Positions 7,777 through 44,823 of a stretch of DNA of 64,000 bases are shown in pieces; position 1 is the stretch's first letter, and each line of letters starts with the position of its first letter. The notes under the pieces were generated by a model. The model saw only the letters and a program-made list of their open reading frames with translations. It was not told the origin of the DNA and ran no database searches. This DNA comes from an uncultured Bacilli bacterium (GTDB taxonomy: Bacteria; Bacillota_I; Bacilli_A; RF39; UBA660): NCBI GenBank assembly GCA_934130545.1, contig CAKOYD010000001.1, forward strand, positions 138,343 to 202,342. Reading direction: 5' to 3'. A program made the translations under genes and the position numbers.

Positions 7777-9870
7777 TTATACTTTAGAGATACTTTTATG
7801 ATTTTTCATTAATTTCTTAATACCATATGGATGTGGAAAAGCAACGGTAATAATTGATTTATCAACAGAGATAACTACTCCTTCGCCATATTCAGTATGC
7901 TTTATTATTTCTCCTTCAGTAAAATCAGTATTAGTATTAGTATACATTTTTTCTTTAATTATTTTAGAGACTACTTTTATTGGTGGTGTTGTTTTATTTT
8001 CTTTTTCTAGATAGTTATCATCTATTTCTTCAATAAATCTACTTACGGGGTTAATTTGGGTATTACCAAATAGGGTTCTTTTTTTAGCATTTAGTAAATA
8101 TAGATTCTTTTTAGCACGGGTAATAGCTACATAACAAAGACGTCTTTCTTCTTCAATAGCAGCCATACCTCCTTCGTTGATTGCATTATAGTGAGGGAAT
8201 ATTCCTTCTTCCATACCAATAACAAAGACATTATCAAACTCTAGTCCTTTAACAGCATGCATAGTCATTAGGTTAACTTTATTAGTGCCATCTTGGTGCT
8301 CGGACATATCACTTACTAAAGATATTTCATTTAAGAAATCATCTAGAGATATAACACCATTTTCTTCTTCATAACTCTTAGTTATTGATTTAAACTCCTC
8401 TAAGTTTTCTAATCTTATTTCGCTTTCAAGGGTATGCTCCATTTTTAGTTCTTCACGCATACCGGTTTTATCTAATACTAAGTCAACTAATTCAGTTAGG
8501 GATAAACTAGCACTTTCTTTAATTAAGTCTTCAATTAACTCTTTAAACTTTAGTTCTTTACCAGTACTGATAGCATCAAATAGTGGGATATTTCTTTCGG
8601 TTGCAATATCGTTAATACTTTCAATTGTTTTATCACCAATGCCTCTTTTAGGAACATTTATTACTCTAGTTAAACTAACATCATCTTTAGTATTATTAAT
8701 AAGTCTTAAATAACATATTAAATCTTTTATTTCTTTACGATTATAGAAATAGAAACTACCAACTATTTTATAGGGAATATTATTCTTTAACATTTCTTCT
8801 TCGATTAAACGAGATTGAGCATTAGTACGATAGATAATAGCAATATCTTCATAGTTAACGCCTTCTTTTTTCATCTTTAATATTTCACTAGATACATAGG
8901 CGCATTCATCTTTATCAGTATCACTTCTTATATATTTAATCTTACTGCCTTCTTCGTTATTACTCCATAAGTTTTTATCTTTACGCATTTTATTATGTTT
9001 AATAACACTGTTAGCAGCATTTAGAATAGTTTTTGTTGAACGATAATTTTCCTCTAGCATAATAGTAATGGCATCAGGATAATCTTTTTCAAAGTTTAAG
9101 ATGTTTTTGTAGTTAGCACCTCGAAAGGCATATATGGCTTGGTCATTATCCCCTACCACAAAGATGTTTTTATATTTAGCACATAGCATTTTACTAAAGA
9201 CATATTGGGCTTCGTTAGTATCTTGATATTCATCAATTAGAACATATTGATATTTATCTTGATAGTATTCTAAGACATGAGGATTTTCGTTAAATAATTT
9301 AATTGGTAGGATTAATAAATCATCAAAGTCAACAGAATTATTTAATTTTAGTTTATCTTCATATTTCTTATATAATTCAACTATTTTAGAATCATATTCC
9401 ATTTTACTAAAATTACTTGGGGTAATCATTTCATTTTTAGCACTACTTATTTTATTTCTAATATCTTTAGCATTATAATACTTAGGATTTAAGTTCATAT
9501 CTTTCATTAGTTTTTTTACTACTGTTAGGGTATCATCGCTATCTAAGATAACAAAGTTGCGGTCATAACCTAGATATTTATAATTTTCTTTTAATAACTT
9601 AAGTCCTAAAGAGTGAAATGTTGATATTTGAATTAAGTAAGCATCAGTACCTATTATCTTCTTTACTCTTTCTTGCATTTCTTTAGCGGCTTTGTTAGTA
9701 AATGTGATAGCTAAAATATTATCAGGAGATACTCCGTTTTCTATTAAGTAAGCTATTCTACTAGTTAATACTTTAGTCTTTCCTGAGCCTGCTCCGGCTA
9801 GAACTAGCATAGGGCCATTTATATGCTCAACAGCCTTTTTTTGATTTATATTTAGATTATTTATATTCAT
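7777..9870 (-). CDS. pcrA: ATP-dependent DNA helicase PcrA (UvrD family)
   Basis: N-terminal LNxxQxxAV and Walker A AGAGSGKT, DEYQDT motif II, C-terminal UvrD_C. The size, ~700 aa, matches PcrA. Confidence 0.85.
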   Translation of the reverse strand: MNINNLNINQKKAVEHINGPMLVLAGAGSGKTKVLTSRIAYLIENGVSPDNILAITFTNKAAKEMQERVKKIIGTDAYLIQISTFHSLGLKLLKENYKYLGYDRNFVILDSDDTLTVVKKLMKDMNLNPKYYNAKDIRNKISSAKNEMITPSNFSKMEYDSKIVELYKKYEDKLKLNNSVDFDDLLILPIKLFNENPHVLEYYQDKYQYVLIDEYQDTNEAQYVFSKMLCAKYKNIFVVGDNDQAIYAFRGANYKNILNFEKDYPDAITIMLEENYRSTKTILNAANSVIKHNKMRKDKNLWSNNEEGSKIKYIRSDTDKDECAYVSSEILKMKKEGVNYEDIAIIYRTNAQSRLIEEEMLKNNIPYKIVGSFYFYNRKEIKDLICYLRLINNTKDDVSLTRVINVPKRGIGDKTIESINDIATERNIPLFDAISTGKELKFKELIEDLIKESASLSLTELVDLVLDKTGMREELKMEHTLESEIRLENLEEFKSITKSYEEENGVISLDDFLNEISLVSDMSEHQDGTNKVNLMTMHAVKGLEFDNVFVIGMEEGIFPHYNAINEGGMAAIEEERRLCYVAITRAKKNLYLLNAKKRTLFGNTQINPVSRFIEEIDDNYLEKENKTTPPIKVVSKIIKEKMYTNTNTDFTEGEIIKHTEYGEGVVISVDKSIITVAFPHPYGIKKLMKNHKSISKV

Positions 9871-9982
9871 CTATACCACTCTCCTAACTAATTGTATCAT
9901 ATAAATATCAATAATGGTTAATAATTAATGTTTAGTTAACAAAAATATTTTAATAGAATACACTATAAATGATAAGGAGGAA

Positions 9983-10422
9983 GTGATGAAAAAAATAGTT
10001 ATAAGTTTACTTATTATTTTAATTATTGGTGTTTCTTTAATATTTACAGCATTTAATAAGAAGAACGAATCTAGTTCGTTCAAGAAAATTACGGTAGCAG
10101 AAGTTGCACATAGTGTCTTTTATGCTCCCCAATATTTAGCTTTATCTTTAGGATATTTTGAAGATGAAGGATTAGATATTGATTTAGTACTTGCTAGTGG
10201 TGCTGATGCGGTTATGGCAGCAGTGCTATCAGGAGATGCAGAGATAGGATTTTCTGGTACAGAAGCAACTATTTATGTATATAATGGTGGTGAGAAAGAT
10301 TATGTAATGACTTTTGCCGGTCTTACTCAGAAAGATGGTAGTTTCTTAGTATCTAGAGAAAAGATTGATAATTTTACTATTGATATGTTAAAAGATAAGT
10401 ATATTATCGGTGGACGTAAGGG
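9983..10422 (+). pseudogene. ABC transporter substrate-binding protein (NMT1/SsuA/TauA family), N-terminal fragment interrupted by element A
   Basis: Signal peptide/TM plus NMT1-like N-terminus ending ...IIGGRKG. The frame then runs into element-derived sequence. It continues in frame at 12921 after in-silico excision (GGRKGGMPEM). Confidence 0.75.
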
Positions 10423-10450
10423 GTTTCTTGTTAAATGTGATAGTATATAG
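10423..10450. repeat. element A left att arm (ttcttgttaaatgtgatagtatatag)
   Basis: Matches the reverse complement of 12892-12917 at 20 of 26 positions, immediately abutting the core. Confidence 0.65.
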
Positions 10451-11942
10451 TTATGTTTTTGTCTTTATCAATTGTTAGATAATTAATAATACTACTTAAC
10501 ATATTTTTATTTATATCTTTTAAGTTAATAAAATTATCGATAATAGTGTCATAGTCGTACTTTTGCTTGTTAATAATATTCATTTTCTTTAATAATTTAT
10601 TTTCTTTATCCACAAGTGTGTTGATATTATTAGTTATTTCTTTAGTGTATTCTATATATTCTTGAGTGGTTATTATATTATCTAGTTTATCATAATAGAG
10701 TTGTTTCTTTTTTGATAGTAAGTTGTTTTTATCTAGTTTTATAGAATTTAGACTAGTGGTTAGTGAAGTTTTTATTTTTTTGTTAGTGCTAGTTTGTAAG
10801 ATTTCTTTTAAGTAGACTTTATTTATGTTAGATTTTAAATATTTGCTTATTTCTTTTAGGATGACTTGTTCTAATAAATTATAATTAATAGTATGAGGAG
10901 TGCATAGTTTGTACTTACTGTATTTTCGGTAGTATGCGCAACTTGTATAACTATTATTACCTATTTTAGATATTGTTATTTGGTGCTGACATTCATAGCA
11001 CTTGATAAAACCTTTGAGTAAATAGTTAGATGATTTAGATTGGAGATTTTTATTTTTAGATAAGTTATTATTTACAATATTAAATATTTGCTTGTCAATG
11101 ATTGGTAAATGAGAGTTTTGGGTAATAATCCAATTTTCTTTGGGAGTTTTTATTTCTTTTTTTATTTTATAATTTATTTTCTTTCTTATTCCTTGATATA
11201 ATGATCCTGTATATGTGGGGTTAGTTAAAATATCTTTAATGGTCTTGCTACTCCATATGCCGGTAGAGTGTCTATGTAAATTAGCATATACACTAGGAGT
11301 TGGAATGTTTTTAGAGGTTAATATATTGGCAATTTGACTCAGACCATAACCAAGATAAGCTAAATTAAATATTTGTTTTACTATTTGTGATGAATTATCA
11401 TCAATTACTAGTTTATAACGATTATTAGGATCTAGTTTATAGCCGTATACGGCTTTCCAACCTAAAAATAAGCCTTGCTCTTTTTTTGCCCGAAGACTTC
11501 TTCTTACTTTTTTGGAAGTATCTTTAGCATATTGATCATTAAAAACGGCTTTAAATGGTGCAATGTCATTACTAGTGCTGTCATAGTAGGTGTCAATATC
11601 ATCTAATATAGCGATATATCTTATATTATGCATGGGAAAATATTTTTCAAGATACTCCCCTGTTTTAATATAGTCTCTTCCTAATCTAGAATAGTCTTTT
11701 GTTATAACACAGTTAACCTTGTTTTCTTCAATATCGTTAATTAATTTTTTAAAAGATGGTCTATCAAAGTTTGTACCAGAATAACCGTCATCAATATATT
11801 CTTGATATATTTGGTAATTGATATCTAACTTTTCAAGATAATTTAGAATAATACTTCTTTGGTTAGAGATGCTTTCACTTTCTTCTTTATCTTTATTATC
11901 GCTATGAGATAGTCTGATATAGATACCTATTTTATATATCAT
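10431..11942 (-). CDS. large serine recombinase (resolvase domain + recombinase domain + zinc ribbon + coiled coil)
   Basis: N-terminal IGIYIRLSHSD...SISNQR...DDGYSGTNFDRP...YSRLGRD resolvase catalytic motifs and a C-terminal Cys cluster. Stop is 10 bp from the left junction. Confidence 0.85.
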   Translation of the reverse strand: MIYKIGIYIRLSHSDNKDKEESESISNQRSIILNYLEKLDINYQIYQEYIDDGYSGTNFDRPSFKKLINDIEENKVNCVITKDYSRLGRDYIKTGEYLEKYFPMHNIRYIAILDDIDTYYDSTSNDIAPFKAVFNDQYAKDTSKKVRRSLRAKKEQGLFLGWKAVYGYKLDPNNRYKLVIDDNSSQIVKQIFNLAYLGYGLSQIANILTSKNIPTPSVYANLHRHSTGIWSSKTIKDILTNPTYTGSLYQGIRKKINYKIKKEIKTPKENWIITQNSHLPIIDKQIFNIVNNNLSKNKNLQSKSSNYLLKGFIKCYECQHQITISKIGNNSYTSCAYYRKYSKYKLCTPHTINYNLLEQVILKEISKYLKSNINKVYLKEILQTSTNKKIKTSLTTSLNSIKLDKNNLLSKKKQLYYDKLDNIITTQEYIEYTKEITNNINTLVDKENKLLKKMNIINKQKYDYDTIIDNFINLKDINKNMLSSIINYLTIDKDKNITIYYHI

Positions 11943-12077
11943 TATCTAGTCCATAATATTTATTAAAGTATTCTACTAAGTAATAAGATAATAGTTTGTT
12001 AATGTCAAAATTTATTTCAGGATGGATATTTATAATATTCATAGTATCACCTAGTTTAATATATGAGTAAAAAAATA

Positions 12078-12093
12078 GATTATCACGAGTGAT
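12078..12093. promoter_or_regulatory. perfect palindrome TTATCAC-GA-GTGATAA between the XRE gene and the LSR 1 start
   Basis: 7-bp inverted repeat with a 2-nt spacer. The spacer is too short for a hairpin loop, so this looks like an operator in the recombinase promoter region. Confidence 0.45.
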
Positions 12094-12096
12094 AAC

Positions 12097-12336
12097 CTAT
12101 TTATCTAAATCATTAAATAATTCTTTTATATCAATATCTAGAACTTCAGCAAACTTCCATACTGTCCCTAAACTAAATGTTTGATGATAATTGGGACTTT
12201 CAATATTCATAATAAATCCATCACTATATGAACACTTCTCAGCAAATTCTGATTGTGTTAACTTTTTAAGTTTTCTTTGTTTCTTTAAATTTTGTGATAC
12301 TAAATAGTATACATAGTTTTCATCTTTCTTATCCAT
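12097..12336 (-). CDS. XRE-family helix-turn-helix transcriptional regulator
   Basis: LTQSEFAEKCSYSDGFIMNIE HTH_3-like segment. Divergent from the plus-strand ORF 12458..12667. Confidence 0.65.
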   Translation of the reverse strand: MDKKDENYVYYLVSQNLKKQRKLKKLTQSEFAEKCSYSDGFIMNIESPNYHQTFSLGTVWKFAEVLDIDIKELFNDLDK

Positions 12337-12457
12337 ATATTAGTACACTTCCCTCTACTAATATTTTCTCACTAAAGTTGATTTTTATTCTTCACTTGTT
12401 CGTTGAGATTTGGTATAATATAGTTATAATTCTTAAATTGATTAGTGGTGAAAAGGC

Positions 12458-12667
12458 ATGATTAAAGAAAATAAAGTTAATGAAGGTGAATTGGTACTAT
12501 ATAGTACAGTATTAAGTATTTATAACTATTATAATAAAAGTTTTACTAAAGAAATTAATGATAATATTCTTTTACTTTTAGATAGCTTAGAGAAAAATAG
12601 ATGGGATAATAGTGAAGCTGATATTGATAAAATAGAATTAATTGAAAAAATTACTTATCAAGATTAA
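12458..12667 (+). CDS. hypothetical small protein (element A cargo)
   Basis: ORF only. Divergent from the XRE gene. No recognisable motif. Confidence 0.3.
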   Translation: MIKENKVNEGELVLYSTVLSIYNYYNKSFTKEINDNILLLLDSLEKNRWDNSEADIDKIELIEKITYQD

Positions 12668-12878
12668 TTATTTTTTTATATAATTCTATTTCTTTTTGGT
12701 TGTTATCTTTAAATAGTTTAATAAATTTAGTTTTTAGGGCTTGATAGTATTCGGTTAATAATAGTAAGTCTTTTTTATTTAATTGGTTTTCTTTGAGCAT
12801 TTGTCTTATTACTAGGAGTTCTAATAAAGTGTTAGATAATTCTTCATTAATATTAAATCTTATGTCTTCTATTTTCAT
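12651..12878 (-). CDS. hypothetical small protein (element A cargo)
   Basis: ORF only. Convergent with and overlapping 12458..12667, so one of the two may be spurious. Confidence 0.25.
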   Translation of the reverse strand: MKIEDIRFNINEELSNTLLELLVIRQMLKENQLNKKDLLLLTEYYQALKTKFIKLFKDNNQKEIELYKKIINLDK

Positions 12879-12891
12879 TATTTCCTTTCCT

Positions 12892-12919
12892 ATATATTAT
12901 CACTTTATACTAGAAGGGG
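12892..12919. repeat. element A right att arm
   Basis: Reverse complement (ttctagtataaagtgataatatatag) mirrors the left arm. Confidence 0.65.
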
Positions 12920-12920
12920 T

Positions 12921-13061
12921 GGTATGCCCGAGATGACATTAGAATGGGGTATTAAGCAAGCCGGGTTAGATCCTAAGACGGATATGACAGTTGATACTTC
13001 TATTGCTTTTGCTGCTATGCAGGGAGCTTTTGTTGGAGGAACAGGTGATTTTGTAACACTA
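12921..13061 (+). pseudogene. SBP gene middle fragment (NMT1/SsuA family) lying between elements A and B
   Basis: Plus-strand translation GMPEMTLEWGIKQAGLDPKTDMTVDTSIAFAAMQGAFVGGTGDFVTL is typical of NMT1-family SBPs. The listed minus-strand ORF 12905..13093 is antisense noise. Confidence 0.7.
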
Positions 13062-13163
13062 TTTGATGATAGTGATATAGTATGAAAGTGCAATATATAT
13101 AATTCTATCTTCTTATCTATTTAATTATATAATTAATGATTTCTAATAGTCAACATAATTAAT

Positions 13164-14579
13164 CTATAGATAACTAGTATAGTTTACTTGGTAAGTTATG
13201 CTATATCTTTTAGTGGATTTACTATCGTAGCCTCTTTTAAATATAAACTCTTTTTGATATGGTTTTGGTAAATTATTTATTTTAATATCTAAGATTATTT
13301 GGTTATTGTTAGAAGATACATTAATACTATCTATTACTTTTATTAGAGTGTTTATAATAGTGCTTTCTAAAACATCATTAATATTATTAGTTATTTTGAT
13401 AGTATCTATTTCTTCGTTAGTAGACTTATAGATAGTTAGTAATTCTTTAGTTATATCTTGAGTGTTAATATTTAAGATTTTAGTAATATAACTTATGATG
13501 GTATTTAATTCATTTTCTCTAATGTTTGGATTATTACATTTATTATGAATATGACTAGAACAAACCCACGATACTGTTTTATTTTTTAGATAGATTCGAC
13601 GATAGTACGTTTTGTGGCAAGAAGAACAATATATTTTTTGACTATAGGTATATTTTTGAGGAGTATTACTACTCTTTTTTCGTAATTTGAGACGTTTATT
13701 GGCTAGATTCCATGTTTCTTCACTTACTATGGGAGGAATTTTAGTATTATCTTTATATATGTACCAAGATGATGGATCAAGATATTTTATTTTTTTAGTC
13801 ATATAGTCTGCTACTTCTTTTTTATGACCACAGTAATAACCTTTATATTTTGGATTAGTAATAATTCTTGAGATTGTAGTGGTAGTCCACTTTTTGGGGG
13901 TATTATAATCATTATTTAATATTTGGCTTATTTTTGTTAGAGATAATTTATTTTTGGTATACATTTTGAAGATATTTTGAATAACTGCAGCTTCTTCAGA
14001 AATAATTTCTAAATTCTTAGTAGTCATATTTTTCTTATAGCCATATAAGTTGTTGGCTCCTAGAACCTCTCCCCTTTTTATGGCTCTACTCATACCAAAT
14101 TTTATTCTTTCGGATAATCTTCTTACTTCATCTTGGGCAAGACTAGCCATTATTGTTAGGCGTAATTCCGAGTCATTTAATATAGTATTGATGTTATCGT
14201 TTATAAATAATACTGCCACACCATAGTTTAATAATTCTCTTGAATACTTAATACTATCAAGGGTATTTCTAGAAAATCTTGATATTTCTTTGGTTATTAT
14301 TAAGTCAAACTTATTTTTTTTGGCATCATTAATCATTTGCATAAACATTTTTCTCTTTATATCACTGACACCACTGATACCTTCATCAATATAACCAGGG
14401 ACATAAGTCCAATTAGGGTTATTCATTATATATTCAGAAAAGTGTTCATTTTGATTTTGTAATGATTTAATTTGCTCTAGGTGTTCGGTGGATACTCTAG
14501 CATAATAAGTAGCTCTTAGAGGAATATTATTTAATAATTCACCACTTGCTAATTTTTTCTTTACTTCATAGATATTCAT
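13164..14579 (-). CDS. large serine recombinase
   Basis: YARVST...QNQ...DEGISGVSD...ISRFSRN resolvase motifs, a recombinase domain and a C-terminal Cys-rich zinc ribbon. Lies at the left end of element B. Confidence 0.85.
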   Translation of the reverse strand: MNIYEVKKKLASGELLNNIPLRATYYARVSTEHLEQIKSLQNQNEHFSEYIMNNPNWTYVPGYIDEGISGVSDIKRKMFMQMINDAKKNKFDLIITKEISRFSRNTLDSIKYSRELLNYGVAVLFINDNINTILNDSELRLTIMASLAQDEVRRLSERIKFGMSRAIKRGEVLGANNLYGYKKNMTTKNLEIISEEAAVIQNIFKMYTKNKLSLTKISQILNNDYNTPKKWTTTTISRIITNPKYKGYYCGHKKEVADYMTKKIKYLDPSSWYIYKDNTKIPPIVSEETWNLANKRLKLRKKSSNTPQKYTYSQKIYCSSCHKTYYRRIYLKNKTVSWVCSSHIHNKCNNPNIRENELNTIISYITKILNINTQDITKELLTIYKSTNEEIDTIKITNNINDVLESTIINTLIKVIDSINVSSNNNQIILDIKINNLPKPYQKEFIFKRGYDSKSTKRYSITYQVNYTSYL

Positions 14580-14710
14580 TCGTTATAGTACTCTTTCTTT
14601 GACAGTTTATCTTGGCAGAAGTTATATAAATATAGGGAGATAATATTTTCTTCATATAGTTTGCTATTTATTTCAAGGGCTAGATTATTAGTAATTATTT
14701 TCTTTAGCAT
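14576..14710 (-). CDS. 44-aa small ORF overlapping the LSR 2 start (ATGA overlap); single-Cys peptide with a charged tail
   Basis: MLKKIITNNLALEINSKLYEENIISLYLYNFCQDKLSKKEYYNE. Read from the sequence; below the ORF-track length cutoff. Function is speculative. Confidence 0.25.
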   Translation of the reverse strand: MLKKIITNNLALEINSKLYEENIISLYLYNFCQDKLSKKEYYNE

Positions 14711-14778
14711 GTTATCACCTATTTAATTTTATGTGATAAATATTAATTTATAATTTACTAGTGGTTTATTATGTGATA
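14711..14778. promoter_or_regulatory. GTGATA-containing repeats upstream of the LytTR regulator gene
   Basis: TTATGTGATA at 14729-38 and 14769-78 (direct, 40 bp apart) plus the inverted copy gTTATCACct at 14711-20. LytTR proteins bind imperfect direct repeats. Confidence 0.4.
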
Positions 14779-14813
14779 GAATTAAATAGTACGTTTACTC
14801 TCATTAGATAAGA

Positions 14814-15569
14814 ATGGGAGTTATTATGAACTTTATTGTATATGAAGATGATACAAGATTTTCTTACGAATATAAAAAAGTTATTCACAAAGTTATGGGG
14901 CTATCGAGTGATAATTATAAGATAACAGAATTTAATAGTTATAATAAAGAAGTATGGGAAAAAATTAAGACAATTGGTAGTCCTAAAATATTTATTGTTG
15001 ATGTTGAAGTTCCTAATAAAAATGGTATTGATTTAGCAAGAATGATTAGAAAAAGCGGTGATTGGACAAGTCCGATTATTGTTATTACTAATTATCAAGA
15101 ATTTAGAAATGTCGGCTATACTGCTAAAATACTAATGTTAGATTTTATAAATAAGAAAGATAATATAAAAGAAGAATTATATCGTGATTTACTTATTGCT
15201 TTAGAAATTAATTCAACGAAGAAAGCTTTACGTTTTACTATTAAAGGTGAAGTTTATCAAGTTCCTTACCAAGATATATTATATATTGAAAAGAATATTA
15301 ATGATAATTATGCTACTATTGTTTGTTCAGATAAAGAATATACCATTAGAAAAACTATTTGTGAATTAGAAGAAGAACTTAAAGATGAGAATATTTTTGT
15401 TAAGAGTCATCGTAGTTTTATTGTAAATATAAATAATATTAAATCTATTAAGTTTGATTATTCAGTTATTGAGTTTGGTAATGGAATAGAAGCATTAATA
15501 TCTAGAAATAACAAAAAGAAATTAAAAGAGATTATGAGTTATAAGAATGAACGGCACTATAATATATAA
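14814..15569 (+). CDS. LytTR-family response regulator (AgrA/ComE-like)
   Basis: N-terminal receiver domain (DD...K pattern) and a C-terminal LytTR DNA-binding domain (FVKSHRSFIVNINNIKSI). Confidence 0.8.
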   Translation: MGVIMNFIVYEDDTRFSYEYKKVIHKVMGLSSDNYKITEFNSYNKEVWEKIKTIGSPKIFIVDVEVPNKNGIDLARMIRKSGDWTSPIIVITNYQEFRNVGYTAKILMLDFINKKDNIKEELYRDLLIALEINSTKKALRFTIKGEVYQVPYQDILYIEKNINDNYATIVCSDKEYTIRKTICELEEELKDENIFVKSHRSFIVNINNIKSIKFDYSVIEFGNGIEALISRNNKKKLKEIMSYKNERHYNI

Positions 15570-16848
15570 TATTATTGATTTTTATTTAATTAGTTTTTAT
15601 TACTATTTTACTAATCGTATTGTTTTTAGAAAACGAGTATATATTAACTATTACACTTTATTAATTTTTGTTATTTGTGGAGTTATGTTTTGTCTTGGTA
15701 AGATAATGCTTTGTAGTTTATTAATTATTATACCTTCTTTTTTAGTGGGATTTATTTATAATAAATATATTTTTAAGATGAAGACTTGTACTTCGTATTT
15801 ATTATCACTTATTTCTTCTTTTGTACTAGCTTTTATTGTAGCACTTTTTTGTGTACTATTTAGATTCTTAGGAATTAGTTTTGGTGGTAATTATTTATTG
15901 TTTTTATTGGCTAAAATGTTTTATATTGGGATAACGATGCTTATTACTTATGTAATTACGTGGAAAGTCTTCGAAAAGATTACCTTTAGTTATCGTAATT
16001 TTTGTTATATCATTGTGATAGGTGTTGTTATTTGTTTAGCATTATTAGTTATGGTTATGATTATGGTACATGAAAATAAGATATGTTTAATGTTATATCT
16101 TGCTTTAATAGCCATGCTATTACTAGGCACTTTGGTTGTGGACTATCGAGAGAAAAAGAATGCTGCTTGTGGAAAAAGGCTTATTGAACTATATGAATAT
16201 GCTAAAGAAAGTGATGCTGTTATTACCGAGTATAGAATGGCTTTACATGAGAGTAATAATACTCTACTAGCTATTAAAGGGATGCTTGGTGGTAATGCTG
16301 ATGAAATTAGAGATTATGTTGATAATGCTATTAAGAAACGTAGAAATATTACTGTTCCTAAAGATAACTTTGGTGCTTTAAATTATATACCTGTTCCTTC
16401 GATTAGATACTTTCTTAGTGGGAAGATATGTGCCATTAAGGATATTGGTTCTAGTGTAGAATTATTTATTAGTCCTGAGGTAGTTAAGATTAAAGATTAT
16501 GTAGGAATGGTTGATTGCTGGAATGATCTTTATATAGTTTTGGGAGTTGTGTTAGATAATGTAATTAATTCTTTGAAAGAAGCTCCTGATAAACTTTGCA
16601 GTATACAAATATATTTAGAAAGTACTATTTTACATTTTGAGTTTGCTAATACTTTTAATGATACTGCGAATGTTAGAAAAATAGCAAAGACAGGATATAA
16701 AACTAAGAATGTTAATCATGGTGTTGGATTGTCTTTAGTTGATGAAGTTTTAAAAGAGAAAAAATATTATAGTTTAGAAACGGATATTGTTGATAATTTC
16801 TTTGTTCAAAAATTAAAAATTGATTTAAGTAAGATTAAGATTAAGTAA
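15547..16848 (+). CDS. membrane sensor histidine kinase, AgrC/ComD-like (HPK10), GHKL ATPase
   Basis: Six or seven N-terminal TM helices, an H-box region and a C-terminal HATPase_c (NHGVGLSLV). Overlaps the response-regulator gene end. Confidence 0.75.
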   Translation: MNGTIIYNIIDFYLISFYYYFTNRIVFRKRVYINYYTLLIFVICGVMFCLGKIMLCSLLIIIPSFLVGFIYNKYIFKMKTCTSYLLSLISSFVLAFIVALFCVLFRFLGISFGGNYLLFLLAKMFYIGITMLITYVITWKVFEKITFSYRNFCYIIVIGVVICLALLVMVMIMVHENKICLMLYLALIAMLLLGTLVVDYREKKNAACGKRLIELYEYAKESDAVITEYRMALHESNNTLLAIKGMLGGNADEIRDYVDNAIKKRRNITVPKDNFGALNYIPVPSIRYFLSGKICAIKDIGSSVELFISPEVVKIKDYVGMVDCWNDLYIVLGVVLDNVINSLKEAPDKLCSIQIYLESTILHFEFANTFNDTANVRKIAKTGYKTKNVNHGVGLSLVDEVLKEKKYYSLETDIVDNFFVQKLKIDLSKIKIK

Positions 16849-16973
16849 ATTAATTCCCAAAAATCATTAAATATTTACTATTTATCATTTATTATAATTT
16901 TCTTATTTGTATGTGTTATGATGGTGTCATGCGAATAACCAATTCGTAAGATTGAAAGCGAGGTAAATTTGTA

Positions 16974-17183
16974 ATGAATGGTAAAGTAAAATGGTTTAAT
17001 AATGAGAAAGGATATGGCTTTATTGAATATAAAGACAATGAGGATATTTTTGTTCACTACTCTGCAATTAAGTGTAATGGATTTAAAACCTTAAAAGAGG
17101 GTGAACTTGTTCAGTTTAAACTTATTGATACTGATAAAGGTCTACAAGCTAGAGAAGTACTTTCATTATCTAGTATTTGTTAA
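16974..17183 (+). CDS. cspA: cold-shock protein (CspA family)
   Basis: MNGKVKWFNNEKGYGFI RNP1 and VHYSAI RNP2 motifs. Long 5' UTR. Confidence 0.9.
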   Translation: MNGKVKWFNNEKGYGFIEYKDNEDIFVHYSAIKCNGFKTLKEGELVQFKLIDTDKGLQAREVLSLSSIC

Positions 17184-17204
17184 AATATAAGTCATTAATT
17201 AATA

Positions 17205-17239
17205 CTCAATTACATATAATTTGTAGTTGAGTTTTTTAC
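17205..17239 (+). terminator. rho-independent terminator after cspA
   Basis: Stem ctcaattac/gtagttgag (8/9 pairs), loop atataattt, then TTTTTT. Confidence 0.55.
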
Positions 17240-17254
17240 TGCTTTCCTACCCTT

Positions 17255-17683
17255 ACACTAACAGAACCTAATGCAACAGCTGTAGAAAAAGCTGGGCTTG
17301 GTCATATTGTATGTTATGTTGGGGATTTAGGTGGTTTAGTGCCTTATACTGCTTATAATGCTAAGAAAAGTTTTATAGATAATAATAAAGATGTTATTAA
17401 GGGATTTAGTAAGGCTATTGATAAAGCACTTAAGTATGTTGATAGTCATGATAGTAAAGATATAGCACCTCTTATATTAGATTATTTTCCTGATACTAAG
17501 TTAGAGGACATGATTACAATAATTGATCGATATAAAACTGGTCAAGCATGGAAGAAAAATATTACTATTAATGAAGATGAATGGAATCATATTCAAGAAA
17601 TAATAATGGAAGCTGGCGAGTTAAATAATACTGTTAGTTATGATAAATTAGTATATTCTAAGCATTTTAAAGATTATGAATAA
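17255..17683 (+). pseudogene. SBP gene C-terminal fragment (NMT1/SsuA family)
   Basis: In-frame TLTEPNATAVEKAGLGHIVCYVGDLGG... continues to the stop at 17683. The listed ORF start at 17339 is an internal GTG. Confidence 0.7.
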
Positions 17684-18095
17684 TATAGTTCAAATAAAAA
17701 ATATTAGTAAAGACTTTTATAGTAAGAATAAGATAACTACTGCGATTAAGGATATATCACTTGATGTTAAAGATGGGGAGTTTGTGGCTATTGTTGGACC
17801 TTCAGGGTGTGGTAAATCGACACTACTTAATATACTATGTAATTTAGATAAGCCAACTAGTGGGCAAATAATATTGAAGAATAATGCAAAAATTGGTTAT
17901 ATGCTCCAACAAGATTGTTTATTTCCATGGTTAACTATTTTCGATAATTGTTGTATAGGGTTAAAGATTGAAAATAAGTTAACTAAAGAGAATAAAGAAT
18001 ATGTTAAGAATTTATTATATACCTATGGGCTTAAAGATTTTATGAATAGTTATCCTAATAGTTTATCTGGTGGTATGCGTCAAAGAGTTGTTTGA
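17676..18095 (+). pseudogene. ABC transporter ATP-binding protein (SsuB/TauB/NrtD-like), N-terminal fragment interrupted by element C
   Basis: Walker A GPSGCGKST, Q-loop and signature LSGGMRQRV, then an element-derived stop. Walker B and the H-loop are found at 24348+. Confidence 0.8.
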
Positions 18096-18105
18096 ATATA
18101 ATAAA

Positions 18106-18134
18106 GACACAAGAAAATACACCCTAAGGTGTAC
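18106..18134 (-). terminator. terminator of the MMPL gene
   Basis: Stem tacacc/ggtgta with loop ctaa, then a T-rich run on the minus strand. Confidence 0.4.
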
Positions 18135-18136
18135 TT

Positions 18137-21100
18137 CTATTTAAATAAATTAACTATTCTATCCCAAAGCGTTGTTGTTTTAGCTTCTTTTACACTTTGA
18201 GATGCTGTAGATGTTTTTAAGGCATCAGTAGTTAAGATAAATCTTGTTGTAGACTTTTCTGAAGATCCGGCAAATGTTTGATAGTTATCGGCTAAGTTAG
18301 ATAATTCTTTTGCACGATATGACATTGATTTTAAATTACCATTAACAAGAGCAGATATTTGTTTGATACCTTCAGTGTTATATTTAGATATACCTTTCGA
18401 TAATTCTTGAATACCATTATTTAATTCATCTACTCCATTATATAGTGTACCTAATGATGTTTTAGTAGCTTCGATTGAAGCTTGTTTTACTTGGTTAGCA
18501 ACAGATGTTGAAGTATTTTCAGCAACAATGGAAGCGGTTTGAATTGCTGACTCATATGCACTATTAATAGCGGTCATTCTTGTTGTTTCTTCCATTAATG
18601 TTTTCATTTCTTGTAATGTAGTATATTTGGTAATATAGTCTTTATTGTTAGTACATGCTTCAACATATGGTGCGGAAATAGTAGTGCTTTGACAAACACT
18701 TACTAGACTTGAAGTAATACCGTTTGCTTCTAACATATTAATACTATTTACTATATTTTGATATGTAGAGTTTTCTTTTAATTTATTAACAGCATTATTA
18801 CCTATTTGTTCCTTATATTCATTAGTAAATGTTTTGTTGACAGTGGCTACAGCTTGAGATTTGATGTATGCTACTTGTTCAGAAGTTAAGGCATCTGATT
18901 CATCATCTATTTTACTAATAGCTTGTTCTAGTCTTTCTTTTAATTCGTTAGAACCATTAGCAATTTTAGTAGCTCCTTCTTCGATAGTATTCATATTATT
19001 TTGTAAATTATTTACTTTGCTATATACTTCATCTAATTTATTAAAGATATTTAAATCATTTGTTTCAATTAACTTTGGTGTAATTATTGAATACATAGAA
19101 GATAATTCAAATTTTGTTGTATCATAACTAATGGTAATAGTATCCATATTCTTTAATTCATATAGTCCTAGACTTTCATATAAACCTGGTGTTGCTAAAC
19201 CAACAATAACATAATTATTACCATTATTAATTACTTTACCATTATCAATAGTTAAGTTTTGGTTATTTGTAGTGCTTATTACACTTCCTAAAGTAGCTAC
19301 AAATGGTGTATATAAACTGCCATGTTTATCATGATTAATATATTGGATTTTTATTGTTACTTTACCACTTTTACCTATGATATCACTTGCTTTGTATTCA
19401 GTACCATCTAATAGATATGTAATTTTTAGACTTACTGGTAATTCTTTATCAGTAGTACCTTTATATAAGATATCTCTTCCTTTAGCATCCCATGTTAATT
19501 GATTATTATTTTGAGTAAATGTTCGATCATCATTAATATTTAAGATATTTTTTAATTCTGAATAGTCTTCGATAGAATCTAGTTTATCAGAATTAATTAA
19601 TTGTTCATTAACAGTGGTACTTTTAATAGTGCCATCATAATTTAATTTACTATAAACAGATTCCTTTTTCTCTAATGCAAAGATGTTTGTTGGAAATACT
19701 GTTGTTAATATGCCACCTAATAATAACCAAGTGGCTATTTTCTTAGATTTTATTTTATTCATTATTTTTTCCTCCTTATTTTTAATTATTACTTTATCAA
19801 ATAGTAATAATATTGCTGGTAAGATAGTTATTACTACCAAGACGCTTATTAGAGCTCCTCTTGATATTAGTGTACATATTGAACCAATCATTTCGATATC
19901 AGAATATAATCCGACACCAAAGGTTGCTGCAAAGAAACACATGCCACTAATTAATATTGATGGTACAGCATAGTTCATTACTTCTAACATAGCTTGTTCT
20001 TTACTTAAACCTTCTTTTCTTTTATTTATATAACTTGTTGTTACTAAGATAGCATAATCAATAGTAGCTCCTAATTGAATTGTTCCTAAAGTAATAGGTG
20101 CTATAAATGGTAATACTGTTCCACCAAAGTATGAGAAACTCATATTCGTGAATATAGCAAATTCAATAGCAATAATTAATAATATTGGTAAGATAAATGA
20201 TTTTAGTACAAATAGTAAGACAATAAATATACATACTATTGAGAATATATTAACGTTATTATAGTCAGTATCATAAGTTTCTACTAAGTCTTTCATTAAT
20301 GGTCCTTCACCTGCTACAATAGCTTTTTTATCATATGATTTAACAATATTATTTAATTTATCAGTTTGATTATTTAACTCATTAGTGGCTATATCATATG
20401 TTGAGTTAACAATCATCATTTCATAGTTTTCACTTTCAAAGATGCTTGATAAATTACTTGGAATGATATCTTCTGTTACTCCTATACTACTTAGTTCTCT
20501 AAATGATAAAACAAAATCAATTCCGTCTAGTTCTTTTATTTGTGATATCATATTGTTTATATCTTCATTTTTTAAGTCTTTACTTATTAGTATTATTTCT
20601 GGACTAACAATATTATATTTTTCTTTTAATAATTTATTTGTTTTAACACTTTCTAATGTTTCTGGTAATGATGAATCTAGTTTGTAGTATACATCAACTT
20701 TTTTATTTGCAAGATATGCTGGTACTAATAGAATTAAGAAGATGGCAAATACTACTTTATAGTGTTTAATTATAAAACTATTAAATTTAGCAAAGCTTGG
20801 TATTAAATTACCATGTCTTGTTTTCTCTATTAATTTATCAGAGATTAGTAACAAACTTGGGAATAAGGTTAAGACTGTTAAGACTCCTAGTAAAACACCT
20901 TTGGCCATAACTATTCCTAAATCACGGCCTAATGTTAATCGCATAGCACATAGTGCTAAGAAACCAACGATTGTTGTTAAGCTACTACCGGTAACAGATA
21001 CAAAGGTATCTTGGATAGCTTCAGACATAGCTTCTTCTTTTGTTTTATATTTGTTTTTCTTATCTTCATATGAATGATATAAGAAGATTGAGAAGTCAGT

Positions 21101-21817
21101 AGTAACTCCTAATTGTAAGACTGCTACTAAGGCTTTAGTAATATATGATATTTGTCCTAAAAAGATGTTTGTTCCTAGATTTAAGAGAATTGCACATCCT
21201 ATATTACCTAATAGAACAAATGGTACAAAGTATGAGTCTAAGGATAGTTCTAGTACAATGGTACATAGTAGAACAGCAATAATAATATAGATAGCTATTT
21301 CACGTTCAGATAATTCCATAGTATCAAGGACCATAGAACTCATACCACCTTGAGATATTTTTCCTTCGGTTATTTTTCTTATTTCTTTTACGGCTGATAT
21401 TGTTTTTTCATTAGATGTTGATTCGTTGAAGGTAATAAACATAATATCAGTATTTTCTTTATGTAATTTGTCTTTTACTTCACTAGGAAGCATATCGATA
21501 GGAATTGATACACCAATAGCATCGTAAATACTTACGACATTGGCAACTCCATCAATACCTTTTATTTTTTCTTCTAGGGATAATACATCTTTAGCAGGCA
21601 TATTTTCGATAGTTGCTATTGAGTATCCACCCATGTTGAAGTCATTTGTTAATACATTTTGGCCTTTTATTGTTTCTATATCATCTGGTAAATAAACTAA
21701 AATATTATAATTTATTTTGGTTAATTTCATCCCAATAAATGATAGAACTAATAAAATACTAAATGTAATTATAATTAATGTTTTATGTTTGCATATATAA
21801 TCAGCAATTTTCTTCAT
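18137..21817 (-). CDS. MMPL/RND-superfamily membrane transporter fused to a C-terminal YhgE/Pip-like extracytoplasmic domain (~1226 aa)
   Basis: Two 6-TM bundles separated by a soluble loop (MMPL architecture), then a further TM and a ~500-aa Ser/Thr/Asn-rich coiled-coil region like the YhgE/Pip N-domain. Probable start at ATG 21817 (RBS GGAGGGAG). The track's 18137..21850 ORF uses an upstream Met. Confidence 0.7.
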   Translation of the reverse strand: MKKIADYICKHKTLIIITFSILLVLSFIGMKLTKINYNILVYLPDDIETIKGQNVLTNDFNMGGYSIATIENMPAKDVLSLEEKIKGIDGVANVVSIYDAIGVSIPIDMLPSEVKDKLHKENTDIMFITFNESTSNEKTISAVKEIRKITEGKISQGGMSSMVLDTMELSEREIAIYIIIAVLLCTIVLELSLDSYFVPFVLLGNIGCAILLNLGTNIFLGQISYITKALVAVLQLGVTTDFSIFLYHSYEDKKNKYKTKEEAMSEAIQDTFVSVTGSSLTTIVGFLALCAMRLTLGRDLGIVMAKGVLLGVLTVLTLFPSLLLISDKLIEKTRHGNLIPSFAKFNSFIIKHYKVVFAIFLILLVPAYLANKKVDVYYKLDSSLPETLESVKTNKLLKEKYNIVSPEIILISKDLKNEDINNMISQIKELDGIDFVLSFRELSSIGVTEDIIPSNLSSIFESENYEMMIVNSTYDIATNELNNQTDKLNNIVKSYDKKAIVAGEGPLMKDLVETYDTDYNNVNIFSIVCIFIVLLFVLKSFILPILLIIAIEFAIFTNMSFSYFGGTVLPFIAPITLGTIQLGATIDYAILVTTSYINKRKEGLSKEQAMLEVMNYAVPSILISGMCFFAATFGVGLYSDIEMIGSICTLISRGALISVLVVITILPAILLLFDKVIIKNKEEKIMNKIKSKKIATWLLLGGILTTVFPTNIFALEKKESVYSKLNYDGTIKSTTVNEQLINSDKLDSIEDYSELKNILNINDDRTFTQNNNQLTWDAKGRDILYKGTTDKELPVSLKITYLLDGTEYKASDIIGKSGKVTIKIQYINHDKHGSLYTPFVATLGSVISTTNNQNLTIDNGKVINNGNNYVIVGLATPGLYESLGLYELKNMDTITISYDTTKFELSSMYSIITPKLIETNDLNIFNKLDEVYSKVNNLQNNMNTIEEGATKIANGSNELKERLEQAISKIDDESDALTSEQVAYIKSQAVATVNKTFTNEYKEQIGNNAVNKLKENSTYQNIVNSINMLEANGITSSLVSVCQSTTISAPYVEACTNNKDYITKYTTLQEMKTLMEETTRMTAINSAYESAIQTASIVAENTSTSVANQVKQASIEATKTSLGTLYNGVDELNNGIQELSKGISKYNTEGIKQISALVNGNLKSMSYRAKELSNLADNYQTFAGSSEKSTTRFILTTDALKTSTASQSVKEAKTTTLWDRIVNLFK

Positions 21818-21993
21818 TTTTCTCCCTCCGATAATATAGTTTATTATCATTTGTTGTTTTGGTACACACTAATAAAATATATTATGTTTGTTATCCAACA
21901 TTTTGATTAATATGTATATATATTTAAGCAACATTTTGTATGTTAATTGCTTTTTTGTTATTTTTGCAATATAATTATGTCGAGGCGGTAAAA

Positions 21994-22560
21994 ATGAAGG
22001 ATAAAACTGATTTAAGAGTTATAAAAACGAATAAGATACTATTTGAGGCTCTAACTACTTTGATGAAAGAGAAAACTTTTGAAAAGATTAAGATATCAGA
22101 TATATGTGAAGTGGCTCTGATAAATCGTTCAACTTTTTATGCACATTATGAAGATAAATATGAATTGTTATTAGCACTTATTGAAGATTTAAAAGATAAT
22201 TTGTTAGTAGAGCTAAATAAGAATGAAGCTGAATCTTTGTCCAAAGAATATTTTATGGAACTTTTAGAGATTTTAATTGACCATATTGATAGTAAGAGAG
22301 AGATTTATAGTGCAATACTTTCTCATAATAAGAATGGAATATTTGTGGACTTTTTAATTGATGTGGCTAATCGAGACTTGGCAAAAAGATTAAAGGATAA
22401 TCAGGAAATAATTAAATCAAATATTCCAGCGGATATTATTTCTAAATTTTATCTTGGTGGGATAATAAATATTGGTGTTGATTGGATTATTAATAAAGAT
22501 AAATATAATAAGGAACAAATACTTTTATATCTAGATAAGCTTATTCCAGATAAGTTATAG
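21994..22560 (+). CDS. TetR/AcrR-family transcriptional regulator
   Basis: N-terminal TetR_N HTH (FEKIKISDICEVALINRSTFYAHYEDK). Divergent from the MMPL gene. Likely start at ATG 21994 with a GAGG RBS. Confidence 0.8.
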   Translation: MKDKTDLRVIKTNKILFEALTTLMKEKTFEKIKISDICEVALINRSTFYAHYEDKYELLLALIEDLKDNLLVELNKNEAESLSKEYFMELLEILIDHIDSKREIYSAILSHNKNGIFVDFLIDVANRDLAKRLKDNQEIIKSNIPADIISKFYLGGIINIGVDWIINKDKYNKEQILLYLDKLIPDKL

Positions 22561-22768
22561 TAAAGTCATGACTACGGTTGTGGCTTTTTTTATTTATTCT
22601 ATTTCTAATTTAAATGAATAAAATATAAGTGAAATTTGGTGATTTATGAAATATGAAATTATTAAAGTATTTGATGATGATATTAGTGAATTAGAAATAA
22701 AAGATATTGTTAATAAGAAGTTAAGCATCATTATGAATATTATAGAGTTTAATTAGAGGTGATTAGAT

Positions 22769-24319: not shown

Positions 24320-24347
24320 GGATGTGTTTATGATATTCAAGGAGTTG

Positions 24348-24679
24348 CTTTAATTAGGACACTAGCAATTAAACCGGATATATTGCTTTTGGATGAGCCA
24401 TTTTCTGCTCTTGATTATCAATCACGTTTAGCAGTATGTGATGATGTATATAGAATAATTAAAAAAGAAAAGAAAACAATTATTATGATTACTCATGATA
24501 TTGCTGAAGCTATTTCTATGGCTGATAGAATTGTAATACTTACTGGCAGACCCGCAATGGTAAAGAAGATTATGGATGTTAAGTTAACTAATTCTAGTAC
24601 TCCTATTAATAATAGAAAGTGTGTAGAATTTAGTAAGTATTATGAAAGTATATGGAAAGAGTTGGATTTTCATGTATAG
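24348..24679 (+). pseudogene. ABC transporter ATP-binding protein, C-terminal fragment
   Basis: [23 protein letters not shown] (Walker B) and ITHDIAEA (H-loop). In frame with, and directly after, the recombinase stop. Confidence 0.8.
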
Positions 24680-25460: not shown

Positions 25461-25463
25461 AGA

Positions 25464-25507
25464 AAATCAGCACTGATAATGGGTGCTGATTTATATTTTT
25501 TTAATTT
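25464..25507. terminator. bidirectional rho-independent terminator
   Basis: 10-bp stem aaatcagcac/gtgctgattt with a 9-nt loop, and T-runs on both sides. Confidence 0.6.
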
Positions 25508-40011: not shown

Positions 40012-40279
40012 TCAATCCTCCAATCTTCTTACTTGACTGAGTATTAAGACAATTTAATAATACCGCATTATTAAAAAAATTACAGCGCATTATTTTCTTT
40101 TTCTATCTCTTCGATAAGATATTTTAAAATAAGATCTTTAAAAGTTATATCATTTTCATTCATAGCAACACCTACTTAAAGTTATGTTGTTTTCATTTAT
40201 TTTATTATTGTTTATATTCATTTTATATTCCCCCTTTTATTCAATAAAAAATCCCTATATTATTTTGATATAAGGACTA

Positions 40280-40486
40280 TTATTCATTTATAACTGAATC
40301 AATGTTTTTTATAATATATTCTATTAATAAAGTTTCCATTATAGATTGTATTGTAATTTTTTTATTTTCTATCACTCTTTTAAGAGCCATTTTTGTATGA
40401 TCATCAATTCTAAATTTAACTTGATTATTTTTTGCTAAAGCCATTTTTTCACTCTCCTTTCTAAAAATTGGTACTATTGTATGCAC
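40280..40486 (-). CDS. ribbon-helix-helix (CopG/Arc-like) DNA-binding protein
   Basis: KFRIDDHTKMALKRVIENKKITIQS beta-strand plus helix pattern. Real start is probably the internal Met. Confidence 0.45.
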   Translation of the reverse strand: MHTIVPIFRKESEKMALAKNNQVKFRIDDHTKMALKRVIENKKITIQSIMETLLIEYIIKNIDSVINE

Positions 40487-41466: not shown

Positions 41467-41483
41467 AAACTATATTACTCATT

Positions 41484-42623: not shown

Positions 42624-42625
42624 AA

Positions 42626-44807: not shown

Positions 44808-44823
44808 ATATTCCTCCTATAAA

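Follow-up and report, generated by a model that had tools for sequence, protein, structure and literature searches.

Why should a nutrient-transporter operon in a gut bacterium be cut by a 2.5-kb piece of DNA that encodes little besides its own recombinase? The question arises in a stretch of 64,000 nucleotides (hereafter the window; positions 138,343 to 202,342 of contig CAKOYD010000001.1, assembly GCA_934130545.1) from an uncultured Bacilli bacterium of the lineage RF39; UBA660, with a G+C content of ~26%. Positions 9983-25460 of the window form an ABC-transporter operon encoding a substrate-binding protein (SBP), an ATPase and a permease. This operon is cut in three places, each time by an element that encodes a large serine recombinase (LSR); we call these elements A, B and C. 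We are mainly concerned with element A, which measures 2,497 bp from core to core and lies within a gene for an NMT1/NitT-TauT-type SBP. A previous inspection of the letters alone (the sequence-only reading) took it for an unusually compact integrative module. Our analysis leads us to favor, with some though not strong confidence, another explanation: that element A is an intact, minimal and long-resident gene-intervening element, most likely acting as an excision-dependent on-switch for the transporter.

The host open reading frame (ORF) can be followed up to ..IIGGRKG at 10423 and picks up again as ..GGMPEMTLEW from 12918/12921, which places the insertion at a Gly codon in the SBP motif ..GGRK|GGMPE... 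The frame is restored solely by joins equivalent to 10422+12920, which yield ..GGRKGGMPEM.. (IIGGRKGGMPEM; IIGGRKGGMPEMTLEW) and leave AAG-GGT-GGT-ATG at the in silico junction. When 9986-10422, 12920-13066 and 17267-17683 are joined, the product is an SBP of 333 amino acids (aa), and intact NMT1-family proteins of 332-334 aa span it end to end with up to 72-75% identity. A naturally uninterrupted site in another species, AGA-AAA-GGT-GGT-ATG-CC (AGAAAAGGTGGTATGCC), has the same K-G-G-M join. We therefore assign the crossover cores to the GG dinucleotides at 10421-22 and 12918-19, which are identical in attL and attR, as this is the only register in which the host frame is restored and in which the AGAA/TTCT arm motifs are symmetric about a 2-bp core. 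These are exactly the positions that the sequence-only reading had proposed. The sequence common to attL and attR is the 7-bp AAGGGGT, but a crossover model based on this maximal overlap is ruled out by the resulting frameshift and by an odd-spaced attP.

In this register, the arms that flank the core are 19/26 identical once one of them is reverse-complemented, or 21/26 if the two core-proximal bases are omitted. Among random 26-mer pairs drawn from element A, the chance of reaching at least 19/26 is 3e-5. The near-symmetry previously reported for these 26-bp arms is thus real, although the reported count of 20/26 is not what we measured. Around the core, attP accordingly forms an imperfect inverted repeat, at 19/26 in the window and 16-18/26 in other lineages. 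The sequence-only reading had named a loss of this symmetry in homologous elements as grounds for refutation; in three diverged lineages (described below) the symmetry persists, at 18, 16 and 18 of 26. The GG is kept in both attL and attR of all four lineages, and positions 12893-12914 of the P arm are invariant in all four, while the P' arm has drifted between lineages. In contrast to attP, attB is not symmetric (10/26). For the A118/LI integrase, the half-sites of attP and attB differ by roughly half a helical turn in the placement of the distal, zinc-domain motif. In element A, one 9-mer, GATAATATA (read outward), occurs both in the P arm and in the left arm of attB, with a distance from the core that is 4 bp shorter in attB, a shift that resembles the one known for LSR sites; the right half-sites have no clear shifted motif. 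The deduced attP is TCCTATATATTATCACTTTATACTAGAAGG-GG-GTTTCTTGTTAAATGTGATAGTATATAGTT and the deduced attB is AAAGATAAGTATATTATCGGTGGACGTAAG-GG-TGGTATGCCCGAGATGACATTAGAATGGGG, and the same attR is carried by four further metagenome contigs. We thus agree that this is a very compact, intact LSR element with recognizable attL and attR, from which attP and attB can be deduced. The attP previously suggested for synthesis (12880-12919 joined to 10421-10460) doubles the core, however, and the correct join is of 12880-12919 to 10423-10460.

Related lineages give an indication of how long the element has been in place. The exact LSR_A protein (the recombinase of element A) has 33 index blocks. Among 21 contigs that were read, one and the same context recurs in the three distinct places shown. 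Relatives of LSR_A that are 87%, 83% and 77% identical (L089, L090 and L088) occupy the identical site, and these three lineages carry a matching set of XRE, ORF69 and ORF75 genes as well as the neighboring element B. We compared the window with these three lineages using Nei-Gojobori estimates of nonsynonymous (dN) and synonymous (dS) divergence. The dS of PcrA, a host protein encoded nearby, is 0.49, 1.09 and 0.80 with a dN/dS of 0.03-0.05, and that of LSR_A is 0.75, 1.45 and 1.09, in the same rank order, with a dN/dS of 0.07-0.13. Because the divergences of element and host follow one rank order, the insertion is evidently older than the split of the lineages. On these comparisons, element A is old, vertically inherited and co-diverged with its host, and is not a recent arrival. 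This is not how a recently mobile module would behave, given that the same site is occupied at dS 0.5-1.1.

The same comparisons bear on whether the interrupted gene is still of use. The split SBP pieces have a dN/dS of 0-0.12 and no stops at dS 0.3-1.0, while ATPase-N has a dN/dS of 0.05-0.06. The XRE protein has a dN/dS of 0.01-0.04, and its amino-acid identity of 96-99% across lineages is above that of PcrA. No ortholog of any of these genes contains a stop codon. Judging from these ratios, all element A genes and the split SBP pieces are under purifying selection, and the interrupted SBP gene is still selected, as a dead gene would not look like this at such divergence. No intact SBP with more than 76% identity was found among 5.8 billion proteins, and the cluster of N-terminal SBP stumps has 86 members, some of them on 55-130 contigs. 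In a GTDB synteny search anchored on PcrA, the closest matches are 54-74% identical and the transporter is not beside PcrA. One SBP ortholog, at 1907-2500 of L101 (90% identical over the aligned 61% of a 104-aa query), has an internal deletion or frameshift after ..GGMPE and no element, and illustrates how the gene decays in the ordinary way. P0387, an SBP stump whose sequence stops after GGMPE, was considered as evidence of a second insertion site and rejected, since it reflects an internal deletion or frameshift and not an element.

Two observations on these lineages stand apart. In L088, the element is 3,845 bp long, since a YhcG/DUF1016 nuclease-like gene has been added between the LSR gene and the P' arm (L088 11513-12835). 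The arm stays at the junction, and a second arm-like sequence, ..CTAAATAGTGTATAGTAATAC.., is left beside the end of the LSR gene, an arrangement that may point to cargo being captured through accretion at the att site. Separately, TGA is translated as Trp in several public gene calls for this organism (e.g., ..DDSDIVWKCN.. and ..HIICSWVFY..), so some pipelines applied genetic code 4 to these low-G+C contigs; the long ORFs of the window fit code 11. Protein-cluster "variants" of 168 aa and 66 aa were dismissed as rearrangements because they reflect such gene calls.

The gene content of element A is small. Besides the 503-aa LSR_A, the XRE gene and the two small ORFs (ORF69 and ORF75) that were previously recognized, there is a third ORF of 36 aa (ORF36), which had not been listed. 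The XRE gene was described as divergent from the recombinase gene, yet XRE, ORF36 and LSR_A all lie on the minus strand, with XRE upstream of and co-directional with LSR_A; XRE is divergent only from ORF69. This divergent orientation, which is not that of an operon, also does not fit a reading of XRE/ORF69 as a toxin-antitoxin pair, which we rejected. ORF69 is convergent with ORF75, with a 17-nt overlap of their 3' ends. The element is tightly packed at its edges: the P' arm of attL overlaps the final codons of LSR_A, and 13 nt separate the start codon of ORF75 from the P arm. The XRE protein matches HTH_3 (PF01381) with 31.1 bits, above the cut-off of 23 bits. No match to ORF36, ORF69 or ORF75 was found in Pfam and PHROG searches, nor to ORF36 in a phmmer search of 1.8 billion representatives. 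ORF36 is called in independent assemblies with a dN/dS of 0.10-0.31, and is a candidate coupling peptide or cofactor. No Mob domain was found in element A, where the only companions of LSR_A are XRE and three ORFs no longer than 75 aa. An Rfam scan of 9700-25600 detected no known RNA or riboswitch.

LSR_A contains Resolvase (PF00239, E 3e-18), Recombinase (PF07508, E 7e-22) and zinc-ribbon (PF13408, E 1e-8) domains, and matches the PHROG 95 integrase with E 8e-84. Its RLS catalytic-serine motif aligns with ERLS of the TnpX catalytic domain 2mhc (E 3e-22). It is ~38% identical to annotated TndX genes on enterococcal plasmids, and no member of the phage collection exceeds 35% identity to it. By these similarities, LSR_A is a member of the TnpX/TndX-like branch of LSRs. 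A coiled-coil motif inserted in the LSR zinc-ribbon domain controls directionality; the C-terminal ~130 aa of LSR_A have a helical look, by eye only. According to a passage in PMC5704250 that cites Lyras et al. 2004, TnpX, the best-studied enzyme of the branch, excises and inserts without a recombination directionality factor (RDF), and from the same passage it appears that TnpX-type enzymes may need none. By analogy with TnpX, RDF-free action would suit the minimal element A.

More distant LSRs show how narrowly this family chooses its target, as the same SBP codon is targeted by relatives of LSR_A down to 57% identity. One such LSR, P0011 (57% identical), adjoins NMT1 stumps of 147-153 aa and occurs with an identical element in two host contexts; this element is larger and encodes a TraF-like protein. 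The junctions read GG|GTATCTCAATTAAAGT.. in P0011, GG|GTTTCTTGTTAAATGT in A and GG|GTATCTAGTTAATAGT in L088, and the P' arms are similar. The P0011 element (L092) further encodes an XRE protein 68% identical to XRE_A, 3 kb away from the LSR, and a 39-aa micro-ORF related to ORF36. Relatives of ORF36, which share the motif LIxxFLIEY, are found upstream of LSRs that are 77%, 57% and 45% (L096) identical to LSR_A, as well as upstream of a fourth LSR in the window (LSR_D). As far as these shared genes indicate, A is a stripped-down member of a family with a core module of XRE, micro-ORF and LSR. Many other taxa have SBP fragments that end exactly at ..GDFVxLF, which is the site of element B, and in L102, a JGI metagenome species, two other LSR elements split the SBP gene at the B site and at a site further upstream. 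Taken with the SBP stumps beside LSRs, these cases show that LSRs of these bacteria have targeted the NMT1-type SBP gene repeatedly. The splits in L102 (3705-12357) are at about residue 104 and the B site, the recombinases have 370 aa and 580 aa, one of them being 51% identical to LSR_B, and the A site is intact.

What controls LSR_A is harder to establish. The sequence-only reading pointed to the palindrome TTATCAC-GA-GTGATAA, which does exist and is perfect, although it lies at 12080-12095 and not at 12078-12093. It is located 37 nt upstream of the ORF36 start codon and forms the center of a longer dyad (12068-86 / 12089-107). On the sense strand, a 9-14-bp A/U-rich hairpin starts at the XRE stop codon and leads into a U-run in all four lineages, with a free energy of -9.1 to -12.2 kcal/mol and z of -2.4 to -4.8. 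Substitutions in the 5' arm of the hairpin are C-to-U and G-to-A, so that G.U or A-U pairing is retained, and the loop varies in length. A stable hairpin with a U-run downstream of a stop codon is typical of a Rho-independent terminator, as is a G+C-rich stem; the stem here is rich in A and U, and a consensus scan requiring at least three GC pairs gave no terminator. An A/U-rich stem may be normal in a genome of 26% G+C. The half GTGATAA(TCT) is invariant across lineages and coincides with the -35-like box of GTGATA-17-TATATT, upstream of a strong ORF36 Shine-Dalgarno (SD) sequence, and the block GTGATAATCT..CATATATT.AACTAGGTG at this ORF36/LSR_A promoter candidate is conserved in the four lineages. 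The hairpin is a likely terminator or attenuator of XRE.

A competing explanation is that element A is a currently mobile, self-contained integrative module in which XRE binds the palindrome as an operator that sets integrase expression. Several facts would fit an operator: the palindrome is perfect in this lineage and close to ORF36, one of its halves overlaps the -35-like box, a typical position for a repressor, and XRE is extremely conserved and a steady partner of this LSR family. But the distal half-site is not conserved (it becomes TTATTAT, TTATTAC or TTATCTT) and the spacer has anywhere from 2 to 5 nt, even though XRE itself hardly changes, and what changes there are preserve RNA pairing ahead of a U-run. 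The sequence ATTATCAC, shared by the palindrome and the P arm, was considered as a sign of a common binding protein and rejected, since its 7 copies are not significant against the 4.7 expected genome-wide. Half-site and spacer drift, pairing-preserving changes, the U-run and the -35-like overlap lead us to prefer a terminator or attenuator combined with a promoter, which we consider somewhat probable, over a symmetric operator, which is possible but doubtful; the two are not mutually exclusive. As for mobility, the identical P0011 protein in two host contexts implies that the family can move, whereas element A has co-diverged with its host. In its entirety, the explanation as a mobile module under operator control seems to us rather unlikely. 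An operator for XRE would better be sought between XRE and ORF69, where ~90 nt are invariant in four lineages despite dS 0.4-1. This region has two strong promoter candidates for ORF69 on the plus strand (the sigma-70-like TTGAGA-16-TATAAT at 12403-12430, and TTCACT-17-TGgTATAAT, with an extended -10, at 12391-12419) and an invariant dyad, ATTAGTA-N10-TACTAAT (12339-12362), over the XRE SD and leader; it is a candidate only.

We can now outline how an on-switch might work. LSR_A would pair attL with attR and cut at GG 10421-22 / 12918-19, which would release a 2.5-kb circle carrying attP and exactly restore the gene for the 333-aa SBP. Element A would act together with element B, in the same gene, and element C, in the ATPase gene, and the germ line of the population would retain the integrated form. 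The highly conserved XRE may act on the invariant XRE/ORF69 divergent promoter region, the hairpin and U-run at the XRE stop may limit read-through into ORF36-LSR_A, and LSR_A may be translated through coupling to ORF36. The on-switch role is proposed because the insertion predates the lineage split, is inherited vertically and shows purifying selection on both element and gene. That element A still excises, when it would do so, and which small protein, if any, would set directionality are all inferred.

A number of points weigh against this proposal. Neither the attB_A nor the attP_A junction was found in any search. Exact look-ups of the A-excised and fully restored proteins were negative, as was a search for a junction-spanning fragment with more than 79% identity among proteins of apparently at most ~182 aa. 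In JGI contigs attB_A is absent, all four P-arm matches there being attR, and attP is absent from IMG/VR. The excision searches for element A were low in power, as assemblies seldom keep short variant contigs. The drift of the P' arm (16-19/26) could mean relaxed constraint on excision. The operon can work only once all three elements have left, seemingly a high price for a simple switch. Nor is the transporter known to serve in sporulation or differentiation, which removes the classic argument for excision in a terminal cell. The regulatory logic, finally, is drawn from consensus matches and conservation only. Element B provides a relevant case: its predicted excision product (the middle and C-terminal pieces, 186 aa) has an exact match in the protein collection, and in L091 (ERZ27241599), a natural contig of 808 bp, A is integrated and B is precisely missing, with the predicted GA join CTATTTGA|ACCTAAT. 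On this evidence, elements of B's kind are absent or precisely excised in nature, L091 representing either excision in a subpopulation or a B-free strain.

The lack of any observed excision product of A is also what would be expected if the element and operon were dead, the recombinase inactive, and the insertion a fixed scar in a dispensable operon that serves LSRs as a landing pad. Three insertions in one operon, along with LSR insertions in the same gene elsewhere, suggest that disruption is tolerated, and in a related lineage the SBP gene is internally deleted though no element is present. Yet a relic should have accumulated stops and frameshifts at dS 0.5-1.1 and should have a dN/dS near 1, whereas no host piece or element gene is broken, their dN/dS does not exceed 0.31 and is mostly 0.13 or less, and the GG cores, P arm and regulatory DNA are invariant. 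We consider an inert relic very improbable. A further possibility is that excision occurs only in a terminal mother cell, as with skin, SPbeta, gin and skinCd, while the spore chromosome keeps the element; the transporter would then function in the mother cell alone. Such a scheme would account for the integrated-only form in hundreds of assemblies despite selection on the split gene, and all experimentally shown Firmicutes cases of gene reconstitution by LSRs are of this type (PMC5595907, PMC4191935, PMC5025042). The contig of the 83% lineage, L090, encodes a Spo0A homologue with Response_reg and Spo0A_C domains (15392-16153), so the host clade may sporulate or descend from sporulating ancestors, and the conserved CATATATTA before ORF36 bears a weak resemblance to a sigmaK-type -10. 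Against this, the interrupted genes encode an ABC importer with no known sporulation function, the promoter-like sites are of sigma-70 type, and L091, if it is a heritable B-free strain, would not be expected from excision confined to mother cells. A link to sporulation is therefore conceivable, but we would not presume it. Having considered these alternatives, we retain the excision-dependent on-switch as our explanation of element A. The features on which it is built are listed in the table along with those of neighboring elements.

Table. Features of element A, its host gene and adjacent LSR elements (positions in the window)
Feature	Position	Strand	Remarks
Host SBP gene, 5' piece with GG core	9986-10422	+	Pfam NMT1 (NMT1/THI5-like); in-frame join to 12920; dN/dS 0.08-0.12 against three lineages
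attL	10395-10448	+	B arm 10395-10420, GG core 10421-10422, P' arm 10423-10448
LSR_A, 503 aa	10431-11942	-	Resolvase, Recombinase and Zn_ribbon_recom; dN/dS 0.07-0.13
ORF36, micro-ORF of 36 aa	11932-12042	-	Strong SD AGGTGAT; 11-nt overlap with LSR_A start
Sigma-70-like promoter candidate GTGATA-17-TATATT	12058-12086	-	Upstream of ORF36/LSR_A
Extended dyad/hairpin	12068-12107	-	Core is palindrome TTATCACGAGTGATAA at 12080-12095
XRE/Cro-CI-type helix-turn-helix (HTH) protein, 79 aa	12097-12336	-	HTH_3; phage repressor PHROGs
XRE/ORF69 divergent control region	12337-12457	.	
ORF69, 69 aa	12458-12667	+	No known family; dN/dS 0.09-0.31
ORF75, 75 aa	12651-12878	-	No known family; at element edge; dN/dS 0.12-0.17
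attR	12892-12945	+	P arm 12892-12917, GG core 12918-12919, B' arm 12920-12945
Host SBP gene, middle piece	12920-13066	+	Between elements A and B; dN/dS 0-0.10
Outward-facing promoter-like site TTGACT-18-TATAAT	13124-13153	-	Left end of element B; 11/12 match; invariant in four lineages
LSR_B	13164-14579	-	Element B
Micro-ORF, 44 aa	14576-14710	-	Element B; overlaps LSR_B start
LytTR response regulator	14814-15569		Element B
Histidine kinase	15547-16848		Element B
Cold-shock protein	16974-17183		Element B
Host SBP gene, 3' piece	17267-17683	+	Completes 333-aa protein collinear with intact homologues
MMPL protein, 1237 aa			Element C
ORF, 206 aa	21940-22560		Element C; TetR-like by eye
LSR_C			Element C
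Micro-ORF of ORF36 family, 27 aa	40080-40163	-	Precedes fourth LSR

Element B (13067-17265) has a GA core and interrupts the same SBP gene at ..TLF|EPN.., a further 146 bp downstream from element A. No promoter-like site of its own was found for ORF75, and the nearest such site on its strand is the outward-facing one at the left end of element B. Transcription from there would, by inference from position only, cross attL_B, run antisense to the middle SBP piece, cross attR_A and enter ORF75. A perfect 16-bp A/T palindrome, TTAATTATATAATTAA, at 13121-13136, also at the invariant left end of element B, overlaps the -10 of this site. Element C (18091-24347) splits the ABC ATPase gene at ..QRV|ALIR.., with GAGTTG shared by 18085-90 and 24342-47; the ATPase of L088 is broken at the same position, and the adjacent genes differ. 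As listed (ATG at 22874), LSR_C is without the catalytic-serine region, but its frame is open upstream, reading ..KVGIYLRLSSEDKDK.. (22755-22880). This upstream frame has the SD AGAGGTGAT and no ATG, GTG or TTG, which suggests a non-canonical start, probably an ATT near 22770. The fourth LSR, LSR_D (554 aa, 38347-40011, minus strand), is 34% identical to LSR_A and lies in the region 38347-47761. Beside it is a defense-type cluster with a C5 DNA methylase (42626-43795), a metallophosphoesterase, and a pair of HamA and a DEAD/ResIII helicase (44824-47761) that looks like Hachiman.

The clustering of three elements in one operon raises the prospect that the unrelated LSR elements A, B and C jointly gate a single nutrient-transporter operon, as a conserved, programmed and cross-wired rearrangement. 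We regard this as speculative and rather improbable. In such a scheme, the invariant outward promoter of B would drive the promoterless ORF75, B would contribute its own LytTR two-component sensor, and a previously unrecognized family of 27-39-aa micro-proteins upstream of this LSR clade would act as a cofactor or directionality factor. If true, uncultured gut Bacilli of one clade would have multi-element gating beyond the classical genes of sporulation and heterocyst formation.

To our knowledge, gene reconstitution by LSR excision has been experimentally shown only for Firmicutes sporulation genes and cyanobacterial heterocyst genes. Element A would add a transporter operon of the human gut microbiota to these cases, and the evolutionary signal, with an old insertion and purifying selection on both the split gene and the element, is unusually clean. 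Coordinated excision of A, B and C, if shown, would substantially raise the significance of element A. With an LSR, an XRE protein, three micro-ORFs and defined attP and attB, it would also be a very small natural system in which to study the control of directionality in TnpX-like enzymes. Elements A and B would offer two orthogonal recombinases with natural targets 146 bp apart in one gene, and the attP and attB of element A can be written directly for use as tools.

The best precedents are the gene-intervening elements of spore-formers, namely skin/SpoIVCA in sigK, SPbeta/SprA-SprB in spsM, gin/GirC-GirX in gerE, and skinCd (PMC5595907, PMC4191935, PMC5025042). As in these, the LSR is encoded within the ORF-splitting element, a short core is common to attL and attR, which also contain imperfect inverted repeats, the gene is reconstituted when the element is precisely excised (here in silico), and the integrated form is inherited. 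Unlike A, which has 2.5 kb and no phage genes, they are prophages or composites of 14.6-134 kb (PMC5595907); they lie in sporulation genes and not in an ABC importer gene, and here a single operon is split by three LSR elements. In heterocystous cyanobacteria, interruption elements go down to ~1.3 kb in size, affect 22 different genes and are evolutionarily persistent (PMC4874684). Element A is similar to them (e.g., the fdxN element with XisF) in being nearly recombinase-only, in sharing a gene cluster with others, in its long retention, and in that recombinase lineages track their targets. They differ in belonging to another phylum with another cell biology, in that many use tyrosine-type enzymes, and in that their excision is tied to a known terminal cell type.

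Among integrative mobilizable elements of Firmicutes with serine recombinases, Tn4451 and Tn5397 encode the closest characterized enzymes to LSR_A, TnpX and TndX. LSR_A shares with these the extended RLSxxD...ESxSIxNQ N-terminus, and element A shares with their elements a small size and insertion inside genes. Elements of the Tn4451/Tn5397 type have a GA crossover dinucleotide and a relaxed choice of target. Element A, in contrast, has a GG core, a strict target and vertical inheritance in place of frequent transfer, and is without a mobilization gene, recognizable oriT or cargo. Lastly, the small HTH_3 protein, divergent from a small ORF with a strong promoter and matching phage repressor PHROGs, is reminiscent of the Cro-CI immunity modules of phages and integrative conjugative elements. 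Element A differs from these modules in having no lytic or transfer programme, and in that its repressor gene is directly upstream of the recombinase gene, with the hairpin between them.

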